Below, one piece after another: positions 1 to 1,274 of a stretch of DNA of 64,000 nucleotides. A program made the position numbers and the translations under genes. Under the pieces are notes generated by a model, which ran no database searches, was not told the DNA's origin, and saw nothing but the letters and a program-made list of their open reading frames with translations. Numbering within the stretch: position 1 is the first letter of the stretch; every line of letters starts with the position of its first letter. Origin of the DNA: Prevotella sp. UBA2746 (GTDB taxonomy: Bacteria; Bacteroidota; Bacteroidia; Bacteroidales; Bacteroidaceae); the NCBI GenBank assembly GCA_002353555.1, contig DEJO01000018.1, positions 1,572 through 65,571 of the forward strand. Reading direction: 5' to 3'.

Positions 1-1274
1 TTCGGCAGAGTGATCAGCGGGTTCTTAATATGGTCGTAATAGTAGTTGGCAATCTGCTGACGATGGGCATTGTCCTCATCTAAATGGCGTAGCTTCACAT
101 CCAACACGGCAGCTTGGATTTCATCCAACCGGCTGTTGCGACCGACATACTTAAAGACATATTTGCGGGTTGAGCCGTAGTTGGCAAGGGCACGAATCGT
201 GTCCGCCAACTCTTTGTCGTTGGTCGTCACCGCACCGGCATCTCCAAACGCTCCAAGGTTCTTGCCAGGATAGAAGCTGTGGCCAGCGGCGGAGCCAAGT
301 GAACCAGTAGCCCCCCTACCCCCTGAAGGGGGAGTAAGGCAGGCAGACTTTATCTTCTCAAGAGTGTGCTCCGTATCATAGAGGACCTGTTCGTTGGTGA
401 AACGAAGGACTCTATATCCATAATCCTCAATAACTTTCGTTCTAATCGCATCTTCTTCTTGCTGTCCTTCCAGATTATGGTATTTTCCGTCCACCTCAAT
501 GATGAGTTTCGTTTCCAAACATGCGAAATCAGCTATATATTTGCCTATGATATGCTGTCGACGGAACTTAAGCCCCCCATGCCCCCTAAAGGGGGAGTTA
601 CCGTTCGTAGTACGTTGTTGTATAGCAGGTATTCTTCTTCTACTAAGTATTTCCCACAACAAGGATTCTGCTTCTGTTGGATGGTTGCGGTTCTTCTGTG
701 CATACTCTTTTAGTAGCGGATAAAGGATAGGATCCGCTAAATAAACTCCCCCTTTAGGGGGCAGGGGGCCTTTACATCCATGTGCCTGGGCATTGTCTTC
801 AACGAGTTTGAGGTTGTATTTCTTACATAATGCACCAATCTTCTCGGTATAAGCACAACGACCGTAGAGGTGGACGATAAGAATGGATTTTGTTCTTTCG
901 GTAATCGCTGCCTCTATTTGCTCGTCATCTATCTCCAGGGTGTCAAGACGCGGTTCCACGAACACAGGCTTCAGCCCGTTCTCCGTAATGGCAAGTACGG
1001 AGGCAATGAAAGTGTTGGCAGGCACGATGACCTCATCGCCAGGACGCATCACACCCAGTTCTATGTAGGCACGGAATATCCAGACAAGCGCATCCAGCCC
1101 GTTGCCGACACCCACACAATAGTCTGTACCAATATATTGAGCGTAATCCCTTTCAAACCGCTCATTCTCCTGTCCCTGGAGGTACCAACCGCTGTCCACC
1201 ACACGGCTCACCGCCTCGTGAATCTCATCGGCATATTTCGCCGTAACGTCTTTTAATGGAAGAAATGGTATCAT
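1..1274 (-). CDS. DegT/DnrJ/EryC1/StrS PLP-dependent sugar aminotransferase (3' end outside window) carrying an in-frame DUF559-like insertion
   Basis: Not in the ORF track because it runs off the window. ATG at 1274 ([10 protein letters not shown]...). Manual translation gives ...[12 protein letters not shown][insert][25 protein letters not shown], the family PLP-lysine motif. Frame checked codon by codon and open across 294-782. Confidence 0.93.
311..770 (-). mobile_element. REP-flanked DUF559/Vsr-like endonuclease cassette inserted in frame in the aminotransferase
   Basis: Encodes ...[17 protein letters not shown]...[31 protein letters not shown]...[23 protein letters not shown]. Bounded by inverted palindromic repeats at 311-335 and 745-770, with a third copy at 572-598. 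Visibly AT-richer than the host gene. Confidence 0.8.

Follow-up and report, generated by a model that had tools for sequence, protein, structure and literature searches.

Homing nucleases that reside within genes normally need an intron or an intein to spare their host. The locus described here, from Prevotella sp. UBA2746, raises the question of how a complete nuclease domain bounded by inverted repeats comes to lie in the open reading frame of an aminotransferase, and what kind of DNA element such an insert might be. It is found at the very start of the window, the whole stretch of 64,000 nucleotides that was analysed. We consider it very likely that the cassette is a mobile element kept in frame.

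The host ORF starts at window position 1274 on the minus strand and runs past the window start; the complete gene, on contig G000:C3, comprises 519 codons. Its Pfam match to the DegT family (E 4.3e-76) is split into two pieces, and the host sequence correspondingly falls into codons 1-168 (771..1274, minus strand) and a second part from codon 323 on (1..308, minus strand, continuing past the window edge) that includes the PLP lysine, K338, at 261-263. The nearest solved structures are WlaRG, HCAN_0200 and QdtB, the host part of the structure model superposes on WlaRG at 1.7 Å, and D160 and K338 are invariant in all 88 aligned proteins; fold, PLP Asp160 and Lys338 place the enzyme in the FdtB/QdtB/WlaRG type. 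The sugar 3-aminotransferases WlaRG and QdtB (5u20, 3frk) share both fold and PLP lysine motif with the host, but have a loop of ∼6 residues at a point where the window protein has 155. Empty alleles read C, six residues and TG here. The insert replaces most of this ∼6-residue surface loop ahead of Lys338, with ∼5 loop codons of the empty alleles missing, in agreement with the earlier statement that the family is normally short at this position, before the PLP lysine motif. We infer that the fusion still works as an aminotransferase.

The cassette spans 309..770 (minus strand; 462 bp, 154 codons, residues 169-322) between HGCK and TGSLG, and the ORF translation contains neither stop nor frameshift. 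An in-frame insert of ∼153 codons at 311-770 had been anticipated, and the frame is indeed open throughout, the exact size being as given above. The two ends are 26-bp repeats, inverted relative to each other and agreeing at 23 of 27 aligned positions, with the 5′ copy at 745..770 (minus strand) read as GPLPPKGG and the 3′ copy, at 309..334 (minus strand), read as TPPSGGRGA. The repeat unit has three arms, a 5-bp G-C hairpin and then a third, G-rich arm, which in the 5′ copy faces outward. A further copy at 568..597 (minus strand) lies in a loop of the nuclease and is read as NSPFRGHGG; inverted palindromes translated as Pro/Gly, with a third copy inside, are thus present in frame as had been described. 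No target-site duplication is found at the cassette borders (flanks TGTAAA and ACTGG), loop codons having been lost instead, and identity with an insertion sequence or MITE was rejected for lack of such a duplication. In the structure model (mean pLDDT 87.5) the sole segments below 50 are the three repeat-coded stretches, with low values at residues 172-178 for the 5′ repeat and 219-232 for the internal copy. These Pro/Gly peptides are presumably flexible linkers, and the insert is predicted to be kept in the protein as a separately folded extra domain, not spliced out. No ATG, GTG or TTG occurs in the window cassette before the ADP motif, and no Met precedes that motif in 45 of 87 filled loops, the window copy included; without a start codon of its own, the window copy is probably made only as a fusion.

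The domain between the repeats (336..737, minus strand, residues 180-313) had been called a complete DUF559/Vsr-like unit, and this is borne out by a match to PF04480 over residues 233-311 (E 1.3e-29, 102.7 bits against a cut-off of 20.6) and by a predicted fold of the Vsr/EDxHD type. Fold matches were obtained to 3hrl (Z 14.3, rmsd 1.2, 92 aligned), to the catalytic domain of I-Bth0305I (3r3p; Z 11.9, rmsd 2.7, 94 aligned) and to Vsr (Z 10.0, rmsd 2.2, 99 aligned). The predicted catalytic residues of the window nuclease are D249, E260, D262, H266, D275 and R278. Positions RRQH, D, F, E-x-D-G, H and R are invariant in 86 of 86 DegT-borne cores and the second D in 85 of 86; judged by residue spacing, on which this assignment of roles rests, they would correspond to the Vsr/EDxHD catalytic residues named in the available text of PMC2677866 and PMC3239194. 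Five strain differences are listed within the insert, four of them silent. By Pfam and by the model a separate N-terminal DNA-binding (NUMOD) domain is absent, just two short helices preceding the core. The claim that intein hallmarks are lacking also holds, since Pfam detects no intein family and no Hint domain in the ORF (E 0.1) and the insert ends in GGRGA, not His-Asn.

Runs that contain window DNA are animal gut samples, and the bacterium is probably one of the rumen. One contig from run X1, perhaps the source of the assembly, covers 1-1300 without any difference, and contigs from runs X5 and X7, which belong to two other studies, bridge the 309 junction, X7 bridging the 770 junction as well. 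With the filled allele present in contigs of independent studies, an assembly chimera was rejected. A sister allele jointed in X3 and X5 lacks 312 bp in frame (414..725, minus strand), both ends being kept and the catalytic core lost, and the same loss is seen in proteins P0031, P0032 and P0044. Joints found at 85% likeness come mostly from other organisms and were excluded, so that only the 413-726 joint, backed by the three proteins, has been used. P0102 has a different in-frame loss, the loop of P0111, P0116 and P0120 carries just one repeat-coded peptide, and all filled and deleted alleles observed stay in frame. Runs X3, X5 and X17 also contain cassette-type ends just 6-19 nt apart, gene-less miniatures from other loci.

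Alignment of orthologues, suggested in the original prediction as a way of finding empty alleles, establishes that most are empty and that the filled state is patchy. DUF559 is found in this loop in at least 83 distinct homologues among 120 listed, distant paralogues included. A single one of the 28 genus orthologue loci parsed is filled, the best 80 of 601 sampled DegT loci are all too short for a cassette, and a search of 400 family genomes at E 1e-38, a cut-off too strict for divergent filled alleles, returned the window copy alone. On a host tree of 181 rows (87 filled, 67 with a short loop, 27 with another insert) the filled state requires 26 changes, 13 of them forced, i.e. required by well-supported branches, as against 60 when shuffled; because the filled state is clustered in this way and host and insert identities correlate (Spearman 0.44), much of the inheritance appears vertical. 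In the nuclease tree (128 rows, 110 columns; both trees by FastTree) 5 changes, 3 of them forced, are required for the 86 DegT-borne cores, which are not one clade. They come with different end subtypes, and a DegT paralogue can share a core with an unrelated host at 82-83% identity. An ancient functional fusion was rejected on the basis of the patchy filled alleles and of nucleases that do not form one clade. The same loop accepts other DNA. L066, a relative of the window allele that is 96% identical in DNA, carries a different insert at the same place, and in-frame, unrelated 7-mer-repeat inserts (LSIVNCQL, SSLFTLHSS and ANSQSP types) occur there at L066, L067, L070, L071, L118, L127, L134, L136, L014 and L029. 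The loop is therefore a tolerant site, and its recurrent use may reflect tolerance, not targeting.

What is new here is a homing-like signature, read from DNA comparison, in which near-identical copies of the cassette sit in diverged hosts with short shared flanks. It comprises three sequences and two events. The cassettes of the three filled relatives with DNA are 97-99% identical. Inserts of L063 and L064 agree at 432 of 441 nt (dS 0.028; host dS 1.79 and saturated), identity ending ∼5 nt (5′) and ∼23 nt (3′) beyond the repeats, and those of L064 and L065 agree at 432 of 438 nt (dS 0.043; host dS 0.80 and 1.47), with identity ending ∼85 nt and ∼5 nt beyond; the remaining pair agrees at 426 of 441. 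Short, uneven tracts centred on an insert are a mark of break-induced gene conversion, while precise cut-and-paste would leave fixed borders. The pattern thus points to copying of the homing type in which co-conversion tracts are short, and the presence of near-identical copies at the same spot in diverged genes makes it likely that the cassette is selfish DNA copied between alleles, although ordinary recombination in polysaccharide loci may be an alternative for the two exchange events. Among proteins, P0010 and four others have insert cores that are 98-99% identical in hosts that are 77-79% identical, and converse pairs combine hosts at 89-93% with cores at 41-49%. Cores reach at least 95% in 7 of the 3,080 filled pairs with hosts no more than 85% identical; a 100-residue host window reaches 95-96% in 10 of the same pairs, so that the protein-level control is not sharp. 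No signal of co-conversion was found at the protein level among filled proteins.

By their sequence pattern the cassette ends are BoxC-type (intrastrand-triplex) repeats. As set out in the available text of PMC4666352, the BoxC, PIT and TM(ECO) repeats consist of a pyrimidine arm, a loop, a purine arm, a spacer and a third purine arm, and a hairpin with a third purine arm is what we find on comparing the ends by eye with the consensus of that paper. Like the cassette repeats they are dispersed and include inverted pairs; the E. coli consensus is longer, the cassette subtype being shorter, with its 5-bp stem. Of the description of the ends as REP-like, the inverted hairpin repeats therefore stand, but they are of the BoxC/triplex three-arm type and not GTAG/CGTC REPs. 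Solo or empty relatives had been expected at 2894, 18306, 58561 and 60081, and all four are present, only the first being of the cassette subtype: a solo repeat at 2895..2919 (plus strand) and, from the three-arm finder and of other subtypes, two tandem solo repeats at 18308..18383 (plus strand), a gene-less inverted pair at 58576..58720 (no strand assigned) that has the cassette orientation and an internal copy, and a solo repeat at 60074..60102 (minus strand) in frame in an ORF of ∼1,100 codons. The Caulobacter CIR repeats may be a relative of these three-arm repeats.

The finder returns 135 hits in the genome, G000, and 9 in a single copy shuffled by blocks, and the hairpin core occurs 52 times at no more than one mismatch; the finder counts are lower bounds, since the 745-770 end was missed, and its 50 hits in long ORFs include shadow frames or sites counted twice. 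All 9 close inverted pairs found are in cassette orientation, and the two hairpins with the most hits (20 and 15) correspond to the ends of the genome's two cassettes. The second DUF559 cassette, L001 (G000:C47:48530-48964 and neighbours), has another repeat subtype and is fused in frame to an acetyltransferase-like C-terminus in an arginine operon (gene names from sequence reading), its right repeat lying in frame at the start of the argininosuccinate synthase ORF; argC contains an in-frame solo repeat. On contigs C21, C25, C35, C39, C41 and C47 several long ORFs contain gene-less inverted pairs and solos in frame, and in-frame landing is thus common in G000. No Y1 transposase was found in G000, a weak negative for a genome that is 72% complete. 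The window also contains 7-mer arrays (aattgac/attcat type) at 2636-2952, 11715-11835 and 13229-13409, often adjoining solo three-arm repeats, and a 181-nt element occurs twice among these regions, inverted and 94% alike. Arrays of a 22-bp unit at 14758-14999 and 39119-39370 are mutually inverted and ∼71% alike, and three tandem paralogous genes, ∼1.5-1.6 kb apart and 70-81% alike in stretches, occupy 50905-54994.

Enrichment of the palindrome at DUF559 borders, a further check that had been proposed, is seen across the genus. DUF559 is present in 70 of 151 genomes, mostly in 1-3 copies per genome. The three-arm motif flanks the best 30 genus DUF559 loci on both sides in 22 cases, on at least one side in 27 and on neither in 3, whereas at 30 Y1 transposase loci the figures are 0 for both sides and 2 for at least one. 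Genomes with at least 10 repeats have DUF559 in 38 of 43 cases and other genomes in 27 of 108, five weak DUF559 genomes (best E >1e-15) being excluded from the 70 for this count; 5 of the 43 repeat-rich genomes have no DUF559 match, and 11 of 67 genomes without the repeat pattern do have one. Y1 is without such a link (24 of 43 repeat-rich genomes against 47 of 108 others). The repeat count uses the CCCTCYC subtypes only, with some sites counted twice, and because the genomes are kin the counts are not independent and describe a pattern, not a significance test. At 17 of the 30 DUF559 loci the right flank of the locus itself is the best match to its left flank. Long inverted flanks of other types, TIRtron-like, are found at 19 of 30 genus Y1 loci (L223-L252), so inverted flanks as such are not special to DUF559. 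Other hosts of DUF559 cassettes include leucyl-tRNA synthetase, an ABC ATPase, a helicase, RNase H, an epimerase, SpoU, adenine deaminase and a radical SAM/TRAM enzyme. Neither an ancient fusion, nor a lack of association between DUF559 and the palindrome, nor a chimera, the outcomes that the original prediction had named as counting against it, was found.

How, then, might the element live? Of the small transposase-free selfish loop element that was predicted, the data support a mobile repeat-bounded cassette with solo and empty relatives; that the nuclease drives the movement is something that we infer. We favour, with moderate confidence, a selfish, non-splicing cassette whose own predicted nuclease drives homing-type copying by break repair. 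The cassette would be translated here solely as part of the host fusion, and the nuclease would nick or cut DNA, most likely at or beside a three-arm repeat, as is suggested by the lack of a separate DNA-binding domain and by ends that co-vary with each cassette. At this site the cassette would then spread by break-induced gene conversion, with paralogues or incoming polysaccharide loci as partners, rarer ectopic events would seed it in new genes, and in-frame remnants, gene-less pairs and solo repeats would be what deletions leave behind. More tentatively, at somewhat below an even chance, the DUF559 cassette may also be the parent of the dispersed BoxC repeats. DUF559 could on this proposal, which is comparably tentative, be the missing mobilising enzyme of BoxC triplex repeats, guided by structure and recognising its own three-arm ends; the proposal includes, at the same strength, homing between ∼80% identical alleles, a minimum co-conversion of 5 nt and jumps to new genes, and requires neither splicing nor an own start because the ends code for linkers.

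Several other explanations must be weighed. The repeats might be spread by another enzyme or by triplex replication errors, with DUF559 carried along and the allele swaps reflecting ordinary recombination in polysaccharide loci. The five repeat-rich genomes that have no DUF559, a loop that accepts unrelated repeats, the blunt protein-level control and the link between the motif itself and local instability (reported in the text seen of PMC4666352) all speak for this, yet it leaves unexplained an active site that is invariant in fusions with no start of their own, exchange tracts that stop 5 nt from a repeat and co-occurrence of the repeats with DUF559 but not with Y1; we regard it as unlikely. 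RAYTs are thought to serve their hosts, and DUF559 might similarly be domesticated, for instance resolving triplexes or hairpins at repeats, its position within a gene being incidental. The mostly 1-3 copies per genome, the purifying pattern with its invariant active site, the tracking of repeat load by DUF559 and the conservation of ycjD in E. coli phylogroups A, B1 and C (in the portion of PMC12817139 at hand) would be as expected, but host genes that change, a single loop that has been invaded repeatedly and samples in which in-frame deletion alleles accompany full ones better fit a selfish life cycle, and as a full explanation domestication seems to us quite improbable. Domesticated and selfish roles are compatible and can both hold.

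Very little probability attaches to removal of the insert, whether by loop-out or splicing of the RNA, by ribosome bypass or by protein splicing. The ends are complementary, shuffled versions fold less well than the segment (z -3.9) and Cys and Thr stand at the insert borders; against this, no skipping joint was found in any of the 4 RNA runs (3 samples) at a depth of 2-8, in contigs, which lose rare forms, and four RNA-run contigs (319-1169, 610-1111, 568-1061 and 628-1004) pass from host into insert, the data being contigs only, of low depth, from libraries that may contain DNA. In the predicted RNA fold, moreover, the partner of the 5′ repeat is the internal copy and not the far end, the ORF has no intein domain, and the filled and deleted alleles seen are all in frame; the suggestion that paired ends loop the insert out as RNA thus finds no support in these data. 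An ancient functional fusion or a chimera is hardly credible at all: the correlation of host and insert identity is as a fusion would have it, but most orthologues are empty, the inserts are not one clade and independent studies contain the filled allele.

A selfish cassette of the kind that we favour appears to spare its host with neither intron nor intein, through in-frame landing, a retained domain and, here, obligate fusion. The cassette suggests a function for DUF559, and an origin for BoxC repeats, that can both be tested, and at this locus a small soluble enzyme exists as a natural series of alleles, some full, some internally deleted, some with a solo repeat and some empty. Were DUF559 the mobilising enzyme, such cassettes would form a class of selfish element in their own right, one that repeatedly gives rise to new protein domains.

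In our literature search, which covered listings and parts of main texts, no description of repeat-bounded DUF559 cassettes was found; repeat loci are tabulated in the supplements to PMC4666352 and PMC3733652. E. coli BoxC-type repeats are reported as intergenic and not tied to mobile elements, their origin unexplained since the 1990s, and the words nuclease and ycjD are absent from the text of PMC4666352 available to us. E. coli YcjD (DUF559, 3hrl) is 35% identical to the insert, but is a stand-alone gene with no clear repeat seen upstream. In K-12 (L253:3200-3425) the 3′ end of ycjD overlaps a BoxC-like motif, with a second one ∼170 bp further on. The gene occupies the place of the eefRABCD operon of other lineages, with mobility unmentioned in the part of PMC12817139 seen, and DUF559 fusions to SPOUT enzymes are noted with no explanation in that of PMC1829167. 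REPtrons and TIRtrons, according to the accessible text of PMC3733652, have a RAYT HUH transposase between inverted REPs, and intragenic REPs and Rickettsia RPEs are described there. They share with the cassette one enzyme gene between inverted hairpins and a family of solo and paired members, some in frame, but the cassette enzyme is of PD-(D/E)XK type, HUH and GTAG/CGTC are missing and the whole unit is in frame. REPtron/TIRtron identity was rejected, the gene being DUF559 and the motif flanking 0 of 30 Y1 loci on both sides. EDxHD enzymes of the I-Bth0305I type spread their own frame into empty alleles (PMC3239194, PMC2677866, as far as seen). I-Bth0305I has the same Vsr-like fold and catalytic pattern, with a D-to-H spacing of 17 residues in both, whereas the cassette has no intron, intein or NUMOD, ends in inverted repeats, is part of the host protein and occurs in many unrelated genes. 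By the defining features that were tested, the cassette does not qualify as an intein, a REPtron, an insertion sequence or a two-domain EDxHD enzyme. Among homing insertions that are not spliced, the closest parallel, on the text of PMC11855218 at our disposal, is the ShiLan insertion in actinophage DNA methylases, which is homing-like, apparently unspliced and predicted to loop away from the enzyme; its HNH nuclease is out of frame, while the cassette has a Vsr-fold nuclease in frame, repeat-defined ends and solo relatives. By analogy, then, the cassette would resemble a homing endonuclease gene in its action and a REPtron in its build.
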